A stretch of 6,736 nucleotides of DNA, taken from Candidatus Nanopusillus sp. (lineage in GTDB: Archaea > Nanobdellota > Nanobdellia > Nanobdellales > Nanobdellaceae). Below, one piece after another: positions 1 to 6,736 of this stretch. Below the pieces are notes generated by a model that had not been told where the DNA came from, ran no database searches, and worked only from the letters and a program-made list of their open reading frames with translations. The translations under genes and the position numbers were made by a program. The stretch spans positions 1 to 6,736 of the forward strand of contig DAIUEN010000029.1 in the NCBI GenBank assembly GCA_036845085.1, written 5' to 3'. Numbering within the stretch: the stretch's first letter is position 1; every line of letters starts with the position of its first letter.

Positions 1-57
1 ACAGGTAATTCGGCTGAAATTGATGTTGAAGTATATCCTTTGATTGAACAAAAATAA
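1..57 (+). CDS. 3' end of an unidentified CDS entering from the left edge (...TGNSAEIDVEVYPLIEQK, stop TAA 55-57)
   Basis: Frame 1 is open from base 1 to TAA at 55-57. It is absent from the ORF track because no start codon lies in the window. It is too short to identify. Confidence 0.3.
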   Translation, partial: TGNSAEIDVEVYPLIEQK

Positions 58-70
58 TTTATTAGAATTT

Positions 71-81
71 AATAAATAAAA
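71..81 (-). terminator. Oligo-T tract immediately 3' of the candidate H/ACA RNA
   Basis: The minus strand reads ACA-TTTTATTTATT. Archaeal RNA polymerase terminates at oligo-T runs. The AT-rich background makes this weak evidence. Confidence 0.3.
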
Positions 82-140
82 TGTCCCCCGGCCATCGTTA
101 CCAATACTCATTCCATCATATTGGTTCTACCAACCGGGGT
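82..140 (-). ncRNA. Candidate single-hairpin box H/ACA guide sRNA (archaeal type, K-loop plus 3' ACA)
   Basis: Minus strand 5'->3': A-CCCCGG(139-134)-UUGGUAGA(133-126)-ACCAAUA(125-119)-UGAUGGAAUGAG(118-107)-UAUUGGU(106-100)-AACGAUGG(99-92)-CCGGGG(91-86)-G-ACA(84-82)-UUUUAUUUAUU. The lower stem has 6 GC pairs, plus 2 possible U-G pairs. There is an internal two-sided pocket and a 7-bp upper stem. The apical loop can form tandem sheared G117-A108 / A116-G109 pairs plus U115-U110, the L7Ae-type K-loop signature. ACA lies 1 nt after the lower stem and 15 nt from the base of the upper stem. A T-run follows. It is a GC-rich island in AT-rich intergenic DNA. Confidence 0.6.
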
Positions 141-164
141 ATATTTATTAATTCTTAATTAAAT

Positions 165-173
165 CCTAAAAAA
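165..173 (-). promoter_or_regulatory. TATA-like box candidate for the H/ACA RNA
   Basis: The minus strand reads TTTTTTAGG at -33..-25 relative to base 140. It resembles the TTTTTAAAGG element at a similar distance upstream of tRNA-Cys. The region is AT-rich, so specificity is low. Confidence 0.25.
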
Positions 174-194
174 GATTTTTTTCGATATTTATTT

Positions 195-1094
195 ATGCTA
201 ACCAAAAAAGATATAGAAATGATACTAGAGAAGGTAAAAGAACACAATTTAAAATTTTATAATGAAAAATTAAACGTAGAAATAAAATTACTAGACTTAA
301 GTGATATAAAAATAGAAAAAAATAGGAATTATGGATTCATAGATTCCTCTTATATTAACGGTATTATAGGACCATATAGTTATATATATGCAAGAGCAGT
401 TATTGTTTCACCAAAATTTCTAGACGAAATTGCATTTTTTGATATAATAGCAGATCTTTTTGTTTCTTTTGAAAATTCTGAGAAAGAACCGGTAGATATA
501 AATAATATTTCGGCTCTAATAGCTAAAAGCTTAGAATACAGTCTTGCTAGAAAATATTCTGATCTTTATATTTTTATGGACGGATCTATAATCTCAGATG
601 CAATATTATATTCAAAGTTTAAGGATAAACTAAATTATGAAAATATAGAATCTATAAGAAAAAAATTTATAGAAGACTTTTCTTATATGTTAAACAAAAA
701 ATTGATCTCTATCGCTAAAAGAATTTTACATTCTAATATGTATGGATATACTACTTCAGATATGATACTACTATTGAATAAATTTCCAGAAGATGAATTT
801 TATACTGAAATCAGTGAATATTTATTATCTCCACAAAATAAAAAAATATATATTTCTTACTTTAGAGCTAGAAAGAAAGATCATATATACAGAATCGAAG
901 CATTAGATAATATAAGTAAAGAAGAATTTAAAGAAATAATTTTCGAAACAATATACAAAAATAAATCTTATCCAAAATATTTAAAAGTTGCACATAATTT
1001 GTGTAAAGTTAATAATAAAGAAAAACTAATGTTAGAAAATATATTAAGGAGTTTGTTAGGATATAGTTTTTCTGTTGGTTGGGAAACTAAATAA
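195..1094 (+). CDS. NurA-domain-like nuclease (putative); otherwise hypothetical protein
   Basis: ATG-started 299-aa ORF. Its motifs occur in the order and approximate spacing I associate with the NurA (RNase H-like) fold: GFIDSS (D50), SLEYS (E114), LYIFMDGSII (D129), LISIAKR, YPKYLKVAHNLCKV (H267). The assignment comes from remembered motif patterns, not from a search. Confidence 0.5.
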   Translation: MLTKKDIEMILEKVKEHNLKFYNEKLNVEIKLLDLSDIKIEKNRNYGFIDSSYINGIIGPYSYIYARAVIVSPKFLDEIAFFDIIADLFVSFENSEKEPVDINNISALIAKSLEYSLARKYSDLYIFMDGSIISDAILYSKFKDKLNYENIESIRKKFIEDFSYMLNKKLISIAKRILHSNMYGYTTSDMILLLNKFPEDEFYTEISEYLLSPQNKKIYISYFRARKKDHIYRIEALDNISKEEFKEIIFETIYKNKSYPKYLKVAHNLCKVNNKEKLMLENILRSLLGYSFSVGWETK

Positions 1095-2511
1095 ATCTAT
1101 AATAACTCTTATCTTTAAAGTCTATCAAATCTATTCCTATATTTCTTAGTCTAGATCTTATATAGTCAGAAATCTCGTAATCTTTTCTTTCTCTTAATTT
1201 ATTTCTAATTTCAATTATTAATTCTATCAAATTATTTAATATTTCCATATTTTCTTTTTTTCCATAGAATATATCATCCCATACTGCGTATATTTTATTT
1301 ACAACATTGTAAAATTCGTAGGCTGTATAGTATAAAGTAAAAACTTTTTTATTTATTACTTCTTTATTAATAAATCTTGTAGCTTCTAGTAATATAGATG
1401 TGCTTAAAGTAGTATCTATGTCATCTAGTATAGCATAAATAAACTTCTTTTCATATTCTAAAAGTTTTTTCCATATTACATAATCTTCATTGTCTAGCTT
1501 AAAGGTTCTATCTAATGAATATAACGTAGTAATTACTGTCTTAATAGTAGAAGTAATATAATTATAATTTTCTATTGCCTGATTTATACTATTTTCATTT
1601 AAATCTATAGGATCTCTATAATGAACTGAAATAAGAAAAAACCTAGATGACATAGGGCCATACAAATTAATAAATTCATCAGCAGGAATTATGTTTTTAA
1701 GAGATTTAGACATTTTTTGTCCATTAACTGTTAAATATCCAAAATGAATCCAATATTTTACCCATGGTTTAACTTTATATCTTGATTCTGATTGTGCAAT
1801 TTCGTTTTCATGGTGCGGGAATATTAAATCTTGTCCACCAGAATGAATATCAAATTGGATACCTAAATACTTTGAAGACATTGTTGAACATTCGATATGC
1901 CATCCTGGTCTTCCTTCGCCAATAGAAGTAATCCAATAAGGTTCTCCTTCTTTTTTGAATTTCCATAAAGCAAAATCATATGGATGCTTTTTATCTTGTA
2001 TAAGATCTATTTCTTGATTCCATAAATCTTTGTTTAAATTTCCAGATAATTTTCCATATTCTGAAAATTTGTCTACATCAAAATATATACTATATTTTCC
2101 AAAATATGCATATCCATCTCTTATTAAGTCTTTTATAAATTTTTCTATATCTTCGATATGTTCTGTTACTAAAGGATTTATATAAAATGGTAAATTATTA
2201 ATCTTTTTAATCACTTCTAAATGATATTTTATATTTCTCTTTGGAATTTCATGCCAGTTCTCTATTTTTTCTTCTTCTTTTGCTTTGTTAATTATTTTAT
2301 CATCTATATCTGTAAAATTACTAATAGCTATATCTACGTATCCTAAAAATCTTAAAGTTCTTCTTATTACATCTAATGCTATTTCAGATCTTAGATGACC
2401 TACATGCGATTTTTCATAAGGAGTTATACCGCAATGATATATTCTTACAAATGGATATTCTATAGGTTCAAATATTTCTTTTTTCTTAGTTAGTGTATTA
2501 TAAATATACAA
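1087..2511 (-). CDS. cysS: Cysteine--tRNA ligase (class I cysteinyl-tRNA synthetase)
   Basis: 474 aa. N-terminus is xYIYNTLTKKKEIFEP. The HIGH motif is HVGH within CGITPYEKSHVGHLRS. CysRS-specific RPGWHIECS and FPHHENEIAQSE motifs are present. KMSKS is present as GQKMSKSLKN. The start codon is TTG at 2509-2511, with an in-frame TAA 4 codons upstream, so no ATG or GVG alternative exists. Confidence 0.95.
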   Translation of the reverse strand: MYIYNTLTKKKEIFEPIEYPFVRIYHCGITPYEKSHVGHLRSEIALDVIRRTLRFLGYVDIAISNFTDIDDKIINKAKEEEKIENWHEIPKRNIKYHLEVIKKINNLPFYINPLVTEHIEDIEKFIKDLIRDGYAYFGKYSIYFDVDKFSEYGKLSGNLNKDLWNQEIDLIQDKKHPYDFALWKFKKEGEPYWITSIGEGRPGWHIECSTMSSKYLGIQFDIHSGGQDLIFPHHENEIAQSESRYKVKPWVKYWIHFGYLTVNGQKMSKSLKNIIPADEFINLYGPMSSRFFLISVHYRDPIDLNENSINQAIENYNYITSTIKTVITTLYSLDRTFKLDNEDYVIWKKLLEYEKKFIYAILDDIDTTLSTSILLEATRFINKEVINKKVFTLYYTAYEFYNVVNKIYAVWDDIFYGKKENMEILNNLIELIIEIRNKLRERKDYEISDYIRSRLRNIGIDLIDFKDKSYYRFI

Positions 2512-2513
2512 AA

Positions 2514-2517
2514 CACC
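2514..2517 (-). promoter_or_regulatory. Possible Shine-Dalgarno-like GGTG ahead of the cysS TTG start
   Basis: The minus strand reads AATCGGTGTT-TTG. GGTG matches the archaeal anti-SD complement, but the spacing is short (2 nt). Confidence 0.3.
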
Positions 2518-2568
2518 GATTGTTTAGTTCCATAAATATATTGGAAGTAAAAATCTATTTAAATGTAT

Positions 2569-2652
2569 TGCGGCGGAGGGGATTTGAACCCCTGGCGGAT
2601 CTTTTCCATTCGGACCTAAACCGAACCCCTTTGACCGCTCGGGCACCGCCGC
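2569..2652 (-). tRNA. tRNA-Leu (anticodon UAG), class II with long variable arm, no encoded CCA
   Basis: Hand-folded minus-strand sequence: GCGGCGG UG CCCG AGCGGUCAA AGGG G UUCGG UUUAGGU CCGAA UGGAAAAGAUCCGCC AGGGG UUCAAAU CCCCU CCGCCGC A. The 7-bp acceptor stem is all GC, the T-loop is UUCAAAU, the anticodon loop is UU-UAG-GU, and the variable region is 15 nt. Confidence 0.9.
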
Positions 2653-2653
2653 A

Positions 2654-2729
2654 AGCCGCCGACGGGATTCGAACCCGTGATTAAAGAGGGTCTGCAGCCC
2701 TCCCCCTTTGACCGCTCGGGCACGGCGGC
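2654..2729 (-). tRNA. tRNA-Cys (anticodon GCA), discriminator U73, no encoded CCA
   Basis: Hand-folded minus-strand sequence: GCCGCCG UG CCCG AGCGGUCAA AGGG G GAGGG CUGCAGA CCCUC UUUAAUC ACGGG UUCGAAU CCCGU CGGCGGC U. The anticodon loop is CU-GCA-GA. The U discriminator fits known tRNA-Cys identity. The 7-nt AT-rich variable loop is unusual. Confidence 0.85.
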
Positions 2730-2750
2730 ATATATAGTATTCTAAGTTTA

Positions 2751-2760
2751 CCTTTAAAAA
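2751..2760 (-). promoter_or_regulatory. TATA-box candidate for the tRNA-Cys/tRNA-Leu transcript
   Basis: The minus strand reads TTTTTAAAGG at -31..-22 relative to G1 of tRNA-Cys (2729). The TTTAAA core is centred near -26/-27, the canonical archaeal TATA distance. This would start transcription at or very near the mature 5' end. Confidence 0.35.
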
Positions 2761-2782
2761 TAAAATATATAAAAAAATAAAA

Positions 2783-5700
2783 TTAGATTATATTAAATAA
2801 TAATAAAATTGATAATATTCCAATAGCTATAGAAATTATCTTAATTAGTTCTATTTTTTCAGATATTATTAATTTTTGCTGTGTATAGCTAGAAACTTCT
2901 TCACTATGAGTTAATACATATACAGGAACTGTTGCATTTATATTATTCGTTCCATATATACTTATACATTGTACATTTATCAACAGATTATCAACTCCTG
3001 GCTGTATTCCTAATATTTCTATAGTTCCATATACACTTTTTAATCCAGGTATTGTTACGTTATTTGTTTGTATTCCTTCTATTTTATTACTCAATATTTG
3101 TATATAGTTTCTTTGAGGAACTACCAATACACTACAGTTTATATCTGAAGGTACAAGGTTTACTATAGCATATTGTAATGTACTTTGTTGTCCTTGGTAA
3201 AGTGATATAACATTTGCTTGTAGTGCTATTCCGAAAATATTATTTGTAGAATATATAAGAGAATTATAGAATGCGTAATATCTTTTGAACTCTGCGTATT
3301 GATTTTTTGATATTATCGTTGTATTACAATATTGAGAGGTACACATTCCGGAAGTATAAATAAATGTAGAATTACATATTCTTGAAAATGGCAGTCCATT
3401 GAATTCTATATAACATTCTAAAGTATTTATATCTTTTATTTCAAATGTTGTTGGTGGTTGCAATTGTGTTCTATCTAGTGGTCTTATTAATTCCGATATT
3501 GGAATTACAACTGAATAATTATAAATATATGTATTCCATCCATAGATTGTAAATGTCATATTATAATCTTTTGGACTACACGATGTATTAGTTATATTTA
3601 TCTTTATTTTGTAATGTTGTTGTTGTCCCGGATCTATATTTATAGGATTATCTTTCGATATAATTTGTATACATGACGGATTATAATATATATTGTTTAC
3701 AGATACATTTTGTGCTTGAACAGGACCTAAATTATTTATTAATAATATTATGTCGGATGGATAACCATAAGTTATTTTAGAAAGATTTTGATTTGTCATA
3801 ATTTCTAATTTAACCCATCTTATTTGTACATTATTGTTTGTATATATTTTTAAATCATTACAAGCTGTTAGATTATAATAATTCATTACAGAAACGTTAT
3901 AATATATGCTAAAATCTTGATGTAATCCTATATTAGTTGGGTAGTATATAAAAATATCGTAAACACTTTTTGCAGGTAATATAAATGATCTATTATATTT
4001 ATTTCCTAGTATATCATAATTAATATTTACTATAAAACTATAATTTTCGCTATTATTTATACTTCCTACATATATAGGAGCTCCAGGATTCGTATTGTAG
4101 TTATCTGGATAATATGTTAAGTTATATAAACTCACTTGGGGTGAATAATCACAATTTAATATTAGTAATGTATTATTGTAATTTGAAGAAACAGGGACAA
4201 ATCCTATAGGATAGGCATTTACCAATCCTGGATAAACACTAAGAAATTCTGCGTATGACGTAAGATTATATGAATAACTACTAAGATTATTTATATAATC
4301 TTTTATTACATCTTTATTTCCACAACTTTCATTTAAATAATCTGAAAGATTTACAGTAACATTATTCAGTAACAAAGCATATTTATATATTCTTTCCCAA
4401 TTATCCAATAACCATGCAGTATCCTTATTTTTTGTAGCATTTTTAACTTCTAATAGATATATACTATAATTTTCTAGATAATTTGTATAATTTGAATATG
4501 CACCAAAACAATTTTTAGTAGAATTATTACTTAAAAGATATTGAGTAATATTATATACTACTATAGTATAATTGTATAAGTAATCTGATTTATTGTATAA
4601 TTCTCCTAAGTATTGTTCAGTATATTTTATATATCCTATACTACAGAGATCGGGATTTCCTACTGGACAAATATAGCTAGGAGATGGAGAATCACAGACT
4701 GCTTTTAGTACATAAGCCATTAGGGTATATTTTCCAAACTCACTACTACTAAAAGTCTTATAATCTAAAGAATTTCTGCCCTTAACAGGAGTACTCCAGC
4801 TTGCATTAGGATATACTATTCCATAATTTTTATATTGATTAAATATAAGATAATATGTAAGATCATATCCGCTATTTAAATAATTCTTAAAACTTACAGT
4901 ACCATTTATACTACCAGTTATCAAAGTTTTTGGAGATGCATAATAGTACAACCAATATACCGGAACTGGAGTACCAGATTCTTTAACCGCATTTGAACAT
5001 AGCGCATTATAACTTCCTGAAATACTAATTCCGATAGTAGTATTTGGTATTAATACATACATCTTTTCTCCTGTTATAGCATCATATATTATAGTATAAT
5101 AAGTTCCGCTGTTTGGTCCATTATATGATACATAATAACTACTACTAATAGCATTTGCCTTAAGTTCACCAGCATGGCTGCATGTAGAGTTAGTAAATAA
5201 TGAAGATTGTCCATATATATTGTTTTGCATTAATATTGTTACTAAGAGCAGTAATAAAATTACAAATATTTTTCTTTTCTTCATGAGATAAATTAATAAC
5301 GCCATAATTATAATAATTATAGCTATCAAAAGATATACTTTACTTGACTTTATACTCTGTTGTAACTCTGGTATATTAGGGGTTGTAATATTTTCATATG
5401 TAACATTTGTGATATTATATTCTTTTTGAGATCTTGATATATTCCATTTATTTGAATAATAATCACTTTGAAAAGTAACTATATAGTTTCCATATTCTCT
5501 AAATGTATAATTTACACAATCATTATTAATATTACTAGAATACTTAATGTTAAATGGGCTATTTAAATAAATAAACAGATTGCCTTGTATCTTAGAACAT
5601 ATATAAAAGTAGTCTTCTGTATAATTTACAGAAATTAGATTATTTGGAGCTATTCCGTAAAAATTATTTCTATTTATAACATAATAGGTACAATAATTGT

Positions 5701-6736
5701 ATTCTAAATTATTATTTGATGTCAAATTTATACATAATGAGAATTCATCTTTGTTTAATTCTATCCTATCATATATATATGTGAATAAAGTAGTAGTATA
5801 ATAAGATATATCTCCAATATTTATTGTTTTATATAAATTAAGTTCTGGAGAATACATTATAACCGAAACATTCTTCGTTATGGGATATGTATAATGGTCT
5901 GGAGATGGTGCTACAATTATCATTAAAGAACCATCTCCCGCTAAATAGATACCATCTAATCTTGTAGTAGGACCAAGTATTATAAATCTTAATCTATCTA
6001 AAGCCTGTAATCTTCCATCAGAATATACTTCTATTCTAAAAGAATAAACATTGGGCTTTATATTAGTTAAATCAATATATGGTATTTTTATATTATTTTC
6101 TCCAACAGATAAAGACACATTAAATTCCTTTTCATATATTGGAGTATATAAAATATCATCCCATGGAGATATTCTAATTTTTATAGTAGCATTTGAATCA
6201 AAGCTAGAATATAAACTTACAGTTAAGTTAATGTATTCTCTTACTCCATATCCAACAGCACCACTTCCAGTTTCGATTTTAGTATCTGTACTACTACTAC
6301 TATTTACTATTTCGCTCCAAGTCAAAAGAGTTGGGCTAGTCATATAAGTATTTTGCTTATCAATATATATCCAAGGATATTTACCTGAAGGATTAATTAC
6401 TTTAAATTCTTTATATTGTCCAGGCAAAAATATAAATGGTATTCCGTTTATGTTCCATAAGGGAGTATATAGATATGACACCAAATAATATTCTCCATTT
6501 AAAGTATCAATAGGTACTGAATAATTTAGGCTAATATTAATATTCTGACCTGGTTCTAAGTATAAATCTTTTATTAAATATTCATATATAACTTGATGTT
6601 TATTTAAATGGAAAGGATATATGTATTCATTTCCTTCTTTTTTTATAATTTGTATTACTAAGCTAACATTTGGTAGATAATATTTGTCACCATTTCTAAT
6701 AAATATATTGTAATATAATGTTTCTCTAGAATATAC
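2783..6736 (-). CDS. Giant secreted/membrane-anchored surface glycoprotein candidate, 5'-partial (continues beyond the right window edge)
   Basis: The track ORF 2783-6484 begins at a TTG, not an ATG. I translated the same frame by hand from 6485 to 6736 and found no stop: ...VYSRETLYYNIFIRNGDKYYLPNVSLVIQIIKKEGNEYIYPFHLNKHQVIYEYLIKDLYLEPGQNINISLNYSVPIDTLNGEYY-L-VSYLYTPLWN. The product is rich in N/Y/I/S/T. I hand-counted about 47 N-X-S/T sequons in the 1233 aa. It has a C-terminal hydrophobic anchor and an internal hydrophobic hairpin. I recognise no catalytic motifs. Confidence 0.75.
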   Translation of the reverse strand, partial: VYSRETLYYNIFIRNGDKYYLPNVSLVIQIIKKEGNEYIYPFHLNKHQVIYEYLIKDLYLEPGQNINISLNYSVPIDTLNGEYYLVSYLYTPLWNINGIPFIFLPGQYKEFKVINPSGKYPWIYIDKQNTYMTSPTLLTWSEIVNSSSSTDTKIETGSGAVGYGVREYINLTVSLYSSFDSNATIKIRISPWDDILYTPIYEKEFNVSLSVGENNIKIPYIDLTNIKPNVYSFRIEVYSDGRLQALDRLRFIILGPTTRLDGIYLAGDGSLMIIVAPSPDHYTYPITKNVSVIMYSPELNLYKTINIGDISYYTTTLFTYIYDRIELNKDEFSLCINLTSNNNLEYNYCTYYVINRNNFYGIAPNNLISVNYTEDYFYICSKIQGNLFIYLNSPFNIKYSSNINNDCVNYTFREYGNYIVTFQSDYYSNKWNISRSQKEYNITNVTYENITTPNIPELQQSIKSSKVYLLIAIIIIIMALLIYLMKKRKIFVILLLLLVTILMQNNIYGQSSLFTNSTCSHAGELKANAISSSYYVSYNGPNSGTYYTIIYDAITGEKMYVLIPNTTIGISISGSYNALCSNAVKESGTPVPVYWLYYYASPKTLITGSINGTVSFKNYLNSGYDLTYYLIFNQYKNYGIVYPNASWSTPVKGRNSLDYKTFSSSEFGKYTLMAYVLKAVCDSPSPSYICPVGNPDLCSIGYIKYTEQYLGELYNKSDYLYNYTIVVYNITQYLLSNNSTKNCFGAYSNYTNYLENYSIYLLEVKNATKNKDTAWLLDNWERIYKYALLLNNVTVNLSDYLNESCGNKDVIKDYINNLSSYSYNLTSYAEFLSVYPGLVNAYPIGFVPVSSNYNNTLLILNCDYSPQVSLYNLTYYPDNYNTNPGAPIYVGSINNSENYSFIVNINYDILGNKYNRSFILPAKSVYDIFIYYPTNIGLHQDFSIYYNVSVMNYYNLTACNDLKIYTNNNVQIRWVKLEIMTNQNLSKITYGYPSDIILLINNLGPVQAQNVSVNNIYYNPSCIQIISKDNPINIDPGQQQHYKIKINITNTSCSPKDYNMTFTIYGWNTYIYNYSVVIPISELIRPLDRTQLQPPTTFEIKDINTLECYIEFNGLPFSRICNSTFIYTSGMCTSQYCNTTIISKNQYAEFKRYYAFYNSLIYSTNNIFGIALQANVISLYQGQQSTLQYAIVNLVPSDINCSVLVVPQRNYIQILSNKIEGIQTNNVTIPGLKSVYGTIEILGIQPGVDNLLINVQCISIYGTNNINATVPVYVLTHSEEVSSYTQQKLIISEKIELIKIISIAIGILSILLLFNII
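2786..2854 (-). other. C-terminal transmembrane anchor of the giant protein
   Basis: The last 23 residues are IELIKIISIAIGILSILLLFNII, followed by TAA at 2783-2785. Confidence 0.7.
5228..5338 (-). other. Internal membrane hairpin: TM helix, KKRK, then signal-peptide-like helix, with an in-frame ATG at 5282-5284
   Basis: The translation reads ...SSK-VYLLIAIIIIIMALLIYL-MKKRK-IFVILLLLLVTILM-QNNIYG-QSS... The second half (MKKRKIFVILLLLLVTILMQNNIYG/QSS) has the n-region, h-region and small-residue layout of a Sec signal peptide. The first half looks like a C-terminal anchor. No stop codon separates them. Confidence 0.7.

Follow-up and report, generated by a model that had tools for sequence, protein, structure and literature searches.

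A surface-protein gene of Candidatus Nanopusillus with an internal signal-peptide-like segment appears to be an ancient fusion of two adjacent genes

The DNA analyzed here, called the window throughout, is a stretch of 6,736 nucleotides from Candidatus Nanopusillus sp. (assembly GCA_036845085.1, contig DAIUEN010000029.1, positions 1 to 6,736) with a G+C content of about 24%. Its minus strand carries a long reading frame for a large surface protein, and translation of this strand meets no stop codon from 6736 down to 2786, where the terminating codon follows at 2783-2785. As the frame is open up to 6736, the start of the gene lies outside the window. Alignment with homologues indicates that about 47 N-terminal residues are absent, and the N-terminal signal peptide is predicted to fall within these missing codons. 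An open reading frame (ORF) listing that places the start of the giant ORF at a TTG at 6484 (2783-6484) follows a start-codon convention and does not give the real start. An exact DNA search of metagenome contigs for the sequence flanking the 5′ end returned no matches, and the only contig retrieved via the protein of the neighboring NurA gene was shorter than the window. A Pfam scan of the long-frame protein found no family, and a PDB profile search with the window protein gave no matches.

The original prediction described, inside this frame, the end of one surface protein followed immediately by the start of another: a hydrophobic anchor, an ATG opening the cluster MKKRK, a hydrophobic core and a cleavage-like site QNNIYG/QSS, without the frame ever closing. 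When coordinates and translation were checked, all of these elements were found in place (Table 1). Counted along the visible frame, codon 485 encodes the internal Met, and the downstream unit read from the ATG at 5284-5282 comprises 833 aa, as had been stated. The anchor VYLLIAIIIIIMALLIYL is 18-19 residues long. In 19-residue Kyte-Doolittle (KD) windows it peaks at 3.13, the second segment at 2.18 and the C-terminal anchor at 2.49. A stop-transfer anchor and an internal signal sequence directly behind it are contained in one ORF.

The second segment has the composition of a class I signal peptide. Its n-region is positively charged (KKRK, with the K/R cluster conserved), its h-region of 14 residues lies within the usual range of about 7-15 and below the length of a transmembrane (TM) helix, and its polar c-region carries small or neutral residues at positions −3 and −1 (I-Y-G↓Q, the arrow marking the predicted site). 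A class III signal peptide of the prepilin/archaellin type was considered and discarded, as KKRK-IF has no Gly or Ala after the basic residues; among the relatives only P0013, a divergent fused protein (KKRG-MF), resembles the class III motif [K/R]-[G/A]. Anchoring by PGF-CTERM and archaeosortase was also rejected, with no PGF motif before either TM1 or the C-terminal anchor.

Table 1 Features of the window and anatomy of the fused surface-protein gene. Residue numbers refer to the visible part of the protein.
Feature	Position	Strand	Remarks
NurA-domain protein	195-1094	+	gene/ORF and domain search of the window
Cysteinyl-tRNA synthetase (CysRS)	1087-2511	-	
tRNA-Leu(TAG) and tRNA-Cys(GCA)	2568-2729	-	
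Visible part of the fused surface-glycoprotein gene	2783-6736	-	1317 codons plus stop
C-terminal membrane anchor IISIAIGILSILLLFNII	2786-2839	-	followed by the stop at 2783-2785
Ectodomain 2	2840-5209	-	residues 510-1299
Predicted signal-peptidase site	G509 (ends 5210) / Q510 (starts 5209)	-	motif [I/V]-x-[S/G]↓Q
c-region QNNIYG	5210-5227	-	followed by QSS (to 5201)
h-region IFVILLLLLVTILM	5228-5269	-	14 residues; part of the internal signal-peptide-like segment
MKKRK	5270-5284	-	putative basic cytoplasmic loop; ATG at 5284-5282
TM1 VYLLIAIIIIIMALLIYL	5285-5338	-	residues 467-484; putative stop-transfer anchor of former gene 1
Ectodomain 1	5339-6736	-	visible residues 1-466

Ten homologues were recovered from about 5.8 billion searched proteins; all come from Nanoarchaeota and are single proteins of 1410-1461 aa. 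YN1_4260, DDW05_00570 of Nanobsidianus stetteri and MJ1_0095 of Nanobdella aerobiophila, each annotated as hypothetical, are the named members, and the remainder are metagenome proteins. Homology spans the full length (residues 3-1317 matched, E 1e-229 to 4e-258), with 38-42% amino-acid identity between the window protein and its relatives. All ten have the order of parts seen in the window gene: a signal peptide, a domain of about 480 aa, an anchor of about 20 residues, a K/R cluster, a 13-residue core often containing Pro, the site [IV]-H-S↓Q, a domain of about 880 aa and a C-terminal anchor, the last being kept in every homologue. The consensus of their N-terminal signal peptides reads MKKIYLLSFLLF..SIFS↓QG. 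In MJ1_0095, the junction-spanning stretch contains FLSTIHSQTITV, and the sequence after ...IHS continues with QTITVSPTNL..., the equivalent in the window being QSSLFTNSTC... The proteins contain few K and R residues.

At the DNA level, a scan with one genome per species identified 12 loci, all in Nanopusillaceae, of which 11 cover the junction. The frame is continuous in all 11, with no stop codon or frameshift at the junction, and the loci include the complete genomes of Nanopusillus acidilobi, Nanobdella aerobiophila and strain YN1 (CP010514, AP019769, AP031373). More divergent fused proteins also keep the succession of anchor, basic cluster and short core, namely P0013 (1404 aa), P0015 (1232 aa), P0016 (1173 aa) and P0017 (1159 aa, with the cluster label Nanopusillaceae/Nanoarchaeales); c-regions of these divergent forms end in V-F-S, I-K-A, S-S-G and S-Y-S. 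Given that identity to the relatives is only 38-42%, the junction has survived a long divergence, and its presence at the homologous position in every relative examined indicates a shared pattern beyond chance.

Separate versions of the two halves were found in more distant archaea. An exhaustive profile search of 1.84 billion representative proteins gave 28 matches in three groups. The first consists of the four divergent fused proteins named above. Proteins of about 515-555 aa that match ectodomain 1 only, and that end in a TM helix with a basic tail of 2-10 residues, form the second. The third comprises the stand-alone ectodomain-2-like proteins P0014 (985 aa) and P0019 (836 aa), each with its own signal peptide and C-terminal anchor. 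A word-based search with the ectodomain-1-only family recovered 18 members, all of 521-607 aa, one of them labelled Candidatus Aenigmarchaeota. On the profile, the unfused gene-1 proteins match positions 12-524 (E 1e-35 to 6e-44) and the unfused gene-2 proteins positions 696-1052 or 1002-1402. Ectodomain 1 of the window is thus homologous to stand-alone proteins of about 520-545 aa in other archaea of the DPANN group, and TM1 aligns with their C-terminal anchor.

In five contexts, the gene directly behind gene 1 lies on the same strand, and its product has its own Sec-type signal peptide and a match to ectodomain 2. These are L014 (36% G+C; genes of 527 and 1101 aa with an 8-nt overlap; E 1e-6), L019 (46% G+C; 544 and 1333 aa, 10-nt spacer; E 2e-15), L021 (34% G+C; 529 and 998 aa, 1-nt overlap; E 5e-18), the Aenigmarchaeota metagenome-assembled genome (MAG) L023 (48% G+C; 521 and 1190 aa, ATGA overlap of −4 nt; E 4e-14) and L022 (27% G+C; E 2e-50), where an ectodomain-1-like gene ending in TM-AKKIKS-stop meets the gene for P0019 (836 aa) at a TGATG overlap of −1 nt. 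The match of P0019 covers the 400 conserved residues at the C-terminal end of ectodomain 2, and the neighbor of L022 is a Lon protease gene, as at the Nanopusillaceae loci. The ectodomain-1-like gene of L022 (5856-7001) is shorter than the others and has an in-frame stop inside, so that it was called as two genes of 222 aa and 150 aa; it may be a decaying copy.

An indel of one or two bases at such overlapping stop and start codons is sufficient to create a fused junction of the kind seen in the window, and MKKRK would then unite gene 1's basic tail and the n-region of the signal peptide encoded by gene 2. A comparison of the two ectodomains with each other detected no similarity (blastp E>3; hhalign probability 0.1%), so that a tandem duplication of a single unit was rejected; as the two are unrelated in sequence, the fusion would have joined two different genes. 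Altogether, the comparison supports an origin by in-frame fusion of two neighboring surface-protein genes of the same orientation, which other DPANN archaea have kept apart, and it supports an ancient event whose product is conserved in Nanoarchaeales. On this account, gene 1 specified a signal peptide, a beta-sandwich ectodomain of about 480 aa, a C-terminal anchor and a short basic tail, and gene 2 a signal peptide of its own, a large ectodomain whose head is variable, and a C-terminal anchor; the stretch 5338-5210 would be where the anchor and tail of the former meet the signal peptide of the latter. The first of two readings offered originally, in which two neighboring surface-protein genes had become one ORF, is supported by the distant relatives that carry two adjacent genes.

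Both large domains have the marks of exported glycoproteins. N-x-S/T sequons number 15 in ectodomain 1, against 7.3 ± 2.5 expected from composition, and 35 in ectodomain 2, against 15.1 ± 3.3 expected. The cytoplasmic controls NurA and CysRS contain 3 (2.4 expected) and 1 (3.0 expected), respectively. Surface glycosylation of N. acidilobi has been reported from lectin staining (PMC4935971). Given the sequon excess in each domain, both most likely lie outside the cell, with the KKRK loop inside in line with the positive-inside rule.

AlphaFold2 (AF2) models of the two parts of the protein are of low confidence, with predicted local distance difference test (pLDDT) values of 56.6 and 49.7. They place helices at 464-484, at 488-504 and at the C-terminus (789-808 of the C-part model). 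According to these models and foldseek, again at low confidence, ectodomain 1 is all-beta and consists of a string of Ig/FN3-like sandwiches, in agreement with the Ig-like folds reported for MJ1_0095. Foldseek against the PDB returned only generic arrays of the Ig/FN3/macroglobulin type, with TM-scores below 0.35, and no viral fusion protein, SlaA/B or other specific fold was found with these low-confidence models.

Alignment and AF2 divide ectodomain 2 into a lineage-specific N-terminal part and a conserved beta-sandwich C-terminal part. The former, the N-terminal third of the domain (window residues 510-865, 4142-5209 on the minus strand), has an AF2 confidence below 50. Compared with the MJ1_0095 family, the window protein is without the first subdomain of about 270 aa, which all ten homologues have after the internal signal peptide; its ectodomain 2 begins at the homologues' second 'QSCSHA' subdomain and carries an insertion of about 140 aa. 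In the unfused gene 2 of L019, the equivalent head holds a DUF2341 and a ConA-like lectin domain. From these alignments, the head of ectodomain 2 appears variable and is possibly host-binding.

The internal segment resembles a signal peptide that is removed. In the fused relatives its h-region measures 10-15 aa and often includes Pro, whereas the two real anchors measure 18-21; in P0005-P0008 the segment has no 19-residue window at a KD of 1.8, while TM1 and the C-terminal anchor do peak. Cleaved signal peptides are distinguished from signal anchors by their short h-region (PMC2120157). Within an otherwise variable stretch, the most conserved positions are those of the putative site, with I/V at −3, S/G at −1 and Q at +1 in 12 of 12 sequences each. 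The resulting motif [I/V]-x-[S/G]↓Q is also the N-terminal signal-peptide motif in 11 of 11 orthologues, +1 Gln included, and the N-terminal site follows S-[IV]-[FY]-S↓Q at all 11 orthologous loci. Even the spacing is similar, with 17 residues from basic cluster to site internally and 16 at the N-terminus (L007). Signal peptides of the unfused relatives end otherwise (A↓I, G↓W, A↓E, S↓C).

In the fused proteins, the internal and N-terminal sites hence appear to have evolved together, as expected if the same peptidase reads both and each gives rise to a mature N-terminus. For Nanobdella, the Sec pathway as the only export route and a single signal peptidase gene have been described (bioRxiv 10.1101/2023.10.27.564410). 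The invariant Gln after both predicted sites in the Nanopusillaceae proteins (window G509/Q510, 5207-5212; alignment columns 21-22) would allow an N-terminal pyroglutamate on both mature chains, a feature that the unfused relatives lack.

We consider it probable that the gene is an old in-frame fusion encoding a precursor which signal peptidase cuts into two anchored glycoproteins. The N-terminal signal peptide, seen in the homologues, would start Sec translocation of ectodomain 1. Going by the sequence, the positive-inside rule and the sequon excess, TM1 would then halt the transfer, KKRK would be retained in the cytoplasm, the internal signal-peptide-like segment would restart translocation with ectodomain 2, and the C-terminal anchor would halt this second transfer. 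Cutting by type I signal peptidase after G509 (IYG↓QSS) would release two separately anchored N-glycoproteins in a 1:1 ratio, which would be the same mature proteins as those of the ancestral two-gene operon. Cleavage, if real, would yield the same products from fused and unfused genes and would explain why both states occur among relatives.

Several points weigh against this interpretation. The cleavage is deduced from sequence alone, and the window's own N-terminal signal peptide lies beyond the window edge. In the window, h- and c-regions together give 20 residues from the last Lys to the putative site, enough to span a membrane, and the low-confidence AF2 model packs the segment as an adjacent helix against TM1 (464-484, 488-504), which is equally compatible with an uncleaved hairpin. 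On the evolutionary side, the choice of fusion over fission is based on parsimony and on a single unfused case with a taxonomic label, the Aenigmarchaeota MAG. L022, moreover, is a relative of low G+C content with a Lon neighbor and is nevertheless unfused, so more than one event may have occurred.

The strongest competitor is an uncleaved protein in which TM1 and the second segment form a permanent hairpin around the KKRK loop, displaying two ectodomains and ending in a third, C-terminal TM helix. The hairpin length and the AF2 helices just mentioned speak for it, as do the positive-inside rule, with which the arrangement agrees, and the ORF, which is continuous in all relatives. We nonetheless regard it as unlikely, though not negligible. 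An h-region of 10-15 residues in the relatives, often broken by Pro and without a 19-residue hydrophobic peak in P0005-P0008, is poorly suited to a membrane-spanning helix. The strictness of a motif identical to the N-terminal cleavage motif would be unexplained in a plain helix, and in the unfused relatives the segment has a true N-terminal signal peptide as its counterpart. This single-chain architecture had been the second reading of the original prediction. As the topology of the nascent chain or precursor, with both large domains outside and KKRK inside, it probably stands; the permanence of the second helix does not, since that segment looks cleavable. Judged by this resemblance to a cleavable signal peptide rather than to a permanent helix, a mature form of two polypeptides is more likely than one of a single chain.

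It had also been suggested that the 833-aa unit may be translated independently from its own ATG. In this case, an internal promoter would give rise to a leaderless mRNA starting at the ATG at 5284, and the 833-aa protein would be made alone, besides or instead of the full chain. We find this improbable. At loci L002-L013, the surface-protein gene and its neighbors have a TTTAAA/TTTATAA box at −27 to −33 from the ATG, in an upstream region of about 45 nt, and no Shine-Dalgarno motif. Such TATA-like boxes near −30 suggest leaderless mRNAs in these genomes, so that internal expression would need an internal promoter. The box is present in none of the 11 correctly placed internal contexts (window plus ten loci, leaving aside L010, where the search pattern matched another Met), and no Shine-Dalgarno motif was found before the internal ATG. 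The TM1 codons upstream of the ATG are very A/T-rich, as would suit a promoter, but the A/T-richness of the internal contexts is due only to their Ile and Leu codons. In L019, which is unfused and of higher G+C content, a clear GGTGGTG motif precedes gene 2 (8636-8645).

With the exception of P0008, which has none, all sequences have a Met 0-5 residues ahead of the basic cluster. A Met is also frequent at the equivalent position of unfused gene-1 anchors (FIMKNL-stop, IMMLLLRRKK, LIIMTRRRKA-stop), where the partner gene starts elsewhere, and this weakens the case for the conserved Met as a relic or a working start codon. Synonymous codon identity near the junction is 0.87-0.91, compared with a gene mean of 0.85 ± 0.06, and gives no signal of excess constraint, in a test of low power under a strong A/T codon bias.

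A final argument for internal initiation comes from L018 (ENA ERZ1669406 NODE_692, coverage 6), in which an in-frame TAA at about 1176-1178 interrupts ectodomain 1 (GTYYI-stop-FYSSQYS, with Ser in the others) 55 codons before the anchor. Because of this TAA, the gene caller began the second half at MMKKKK (protein P0011). If the nonsense codon is real, ectodomain 2 is reachable by internal initiation only; L018, however, is a metagenome contig at 6x coverage, and the TAA could be either a real nonsense allele or a low-coverage error. Taken together, separate translation of the 833-aa unit finds no support in promoter or ribosome-binding motifs, in codon constraint or in the conservation of the Met. 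Finally, although the window comes from a metagenome and the sole other contig found from that sample ends short of the junction, an artefact of assembly or sequencing is hardly credible, as is the recent loss, in this strain only, of a stop codon that had divided two genes; both are already refuted by the comparative data, the in-frame junction being shared by independent complete genomes, MAGs and database proteins without a single stop or frameshift at that position.

The remainder of the window differs in part from the surroundings of the orthologous genes. tRNA-Leu(TAG) and tRNA-Cys(GCA) abut with 0-1 nt between them and are located directly upstream of the CysRS gene on the same strand, which places tRNA-Cys next to its own synthetase. 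The orthologous surface-protein gene of five related genomes has no tRNA closer than 6 kb, and downstream synteny in the window organism is therefore different. NurA and CysRS are convergent, and the 3′ ends of their frames share 8 nt (1087-1094).

In a broader sense, an archaeal cell may here make a polyprotein for its own surface, a Sec precursor cut at an internal signal peptide into two anchored glycoproteins in a 1:1 ratio; we advance this wider reading tentatively, with slightly more doubt than conviction. If it is true, the gene follows a biogenesis logic so far associated with the glycoproteins of enveloped viruses. Since relatives have an individual gene for each of the two subunits, the fused state would then be functionally equivalent to the unfused one. 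A complex with a hypervariable head on subunit 2 could act in the host contact of these obligate ectosymbionts. Nanoarchaeota rely on contact with the host surface, which makes a conserved two-subunit glycoprotein with a fast-evolving head a reasonable candidate for the interface.

For annotation, we propose that the gene be kept as one ORF in Nanoarchaeales and presented as a precursor that has two modules and an internal signal-peptide-like segment, and not, as so far, as a simple type I protein with one C-terminal helix. More generally, where one protein seems to end and another to begin within an ORF, the signature can faithfully record a past operon fusion. The archaeal signal peptidase is Sec11-like, and the family offers a natural test of whether it acts on internal signal peptides, with comparable fused and unfused versions as controls. 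The readings weighed here are directly testable in two cultivated Nanoarchaeota.

Previous work on Nanobdella places MJ1_0095, with its C-terminal TM helix, under "other cell surface proteins" and gives it a low expression, ranking below 100th (bioRxiv 10.1101/2023.10.27.564410). In the parts of that description available to us, no mention of the internal junction of anchor and signal peptide was found. Other proteins are the S-layer candidates, MJ1_0160 in Nanobdella (bioRxiv 10.1101/2023.10.27.564410) and Nps760 in N. acidilobi (PMC4935971). The complex is probably a minor component of the cell surface or of host contact and not the main S-layer protein.

Membership in known S-layer families (SlaA/SlaB, tetrabrachion and others) was examined and rejected, with no Pfam or PDB match and only generic foldseek matches. 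In their arrangement, the unfused pairs resemble the SlaA/SlaB S-layers of Sulfolobales, where two surface-glycoprotein genes lie side by side and one product has a C-terminal TM anchor. Unlike SlaA/SlaB, with which there is no homology, both partners here are predicted to be membrane-anchored, and the Nanobdella orthologue is weakly expressed. The order of elements at the junction is that of the viral envelope polyproteins processed by host signal peptidase, such as flavivirus prM-E, hepatitis C virus E1-E2 and bunyavirus Gn-Gc. In these polyproteins, a stop-transfer anchor is followed by an internal signal, and a cut after the signal produces two anchored glycoproteins from one chain. The window gene likewise has a stop-transfer anchor directly before an internal signal sequence; it differs in being a cellular archaeal gene of no related sequence or fold, and in that its cleavage is a prediction.

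Among archaea, the nearest precedent is tetrabrachion of Staphylothermus marinus, a surface glycoprotein whose two chains derive from a single gene product (PMC5744192). Tetrabrachion is cut at Glu700/Gly701, possibly by the STABLE protease, and has neither an internal anchor nor an internal signal peptide (PMC5744192). No description of an archaeal protein with an internal signal peptide came up in a literature search. Gene fusions, and internal signal peptides placed after a stop-transfer anchor, are both known in kind, and the window gene would be a variant of them in an uncharacterised family of archaeal surface proteins.

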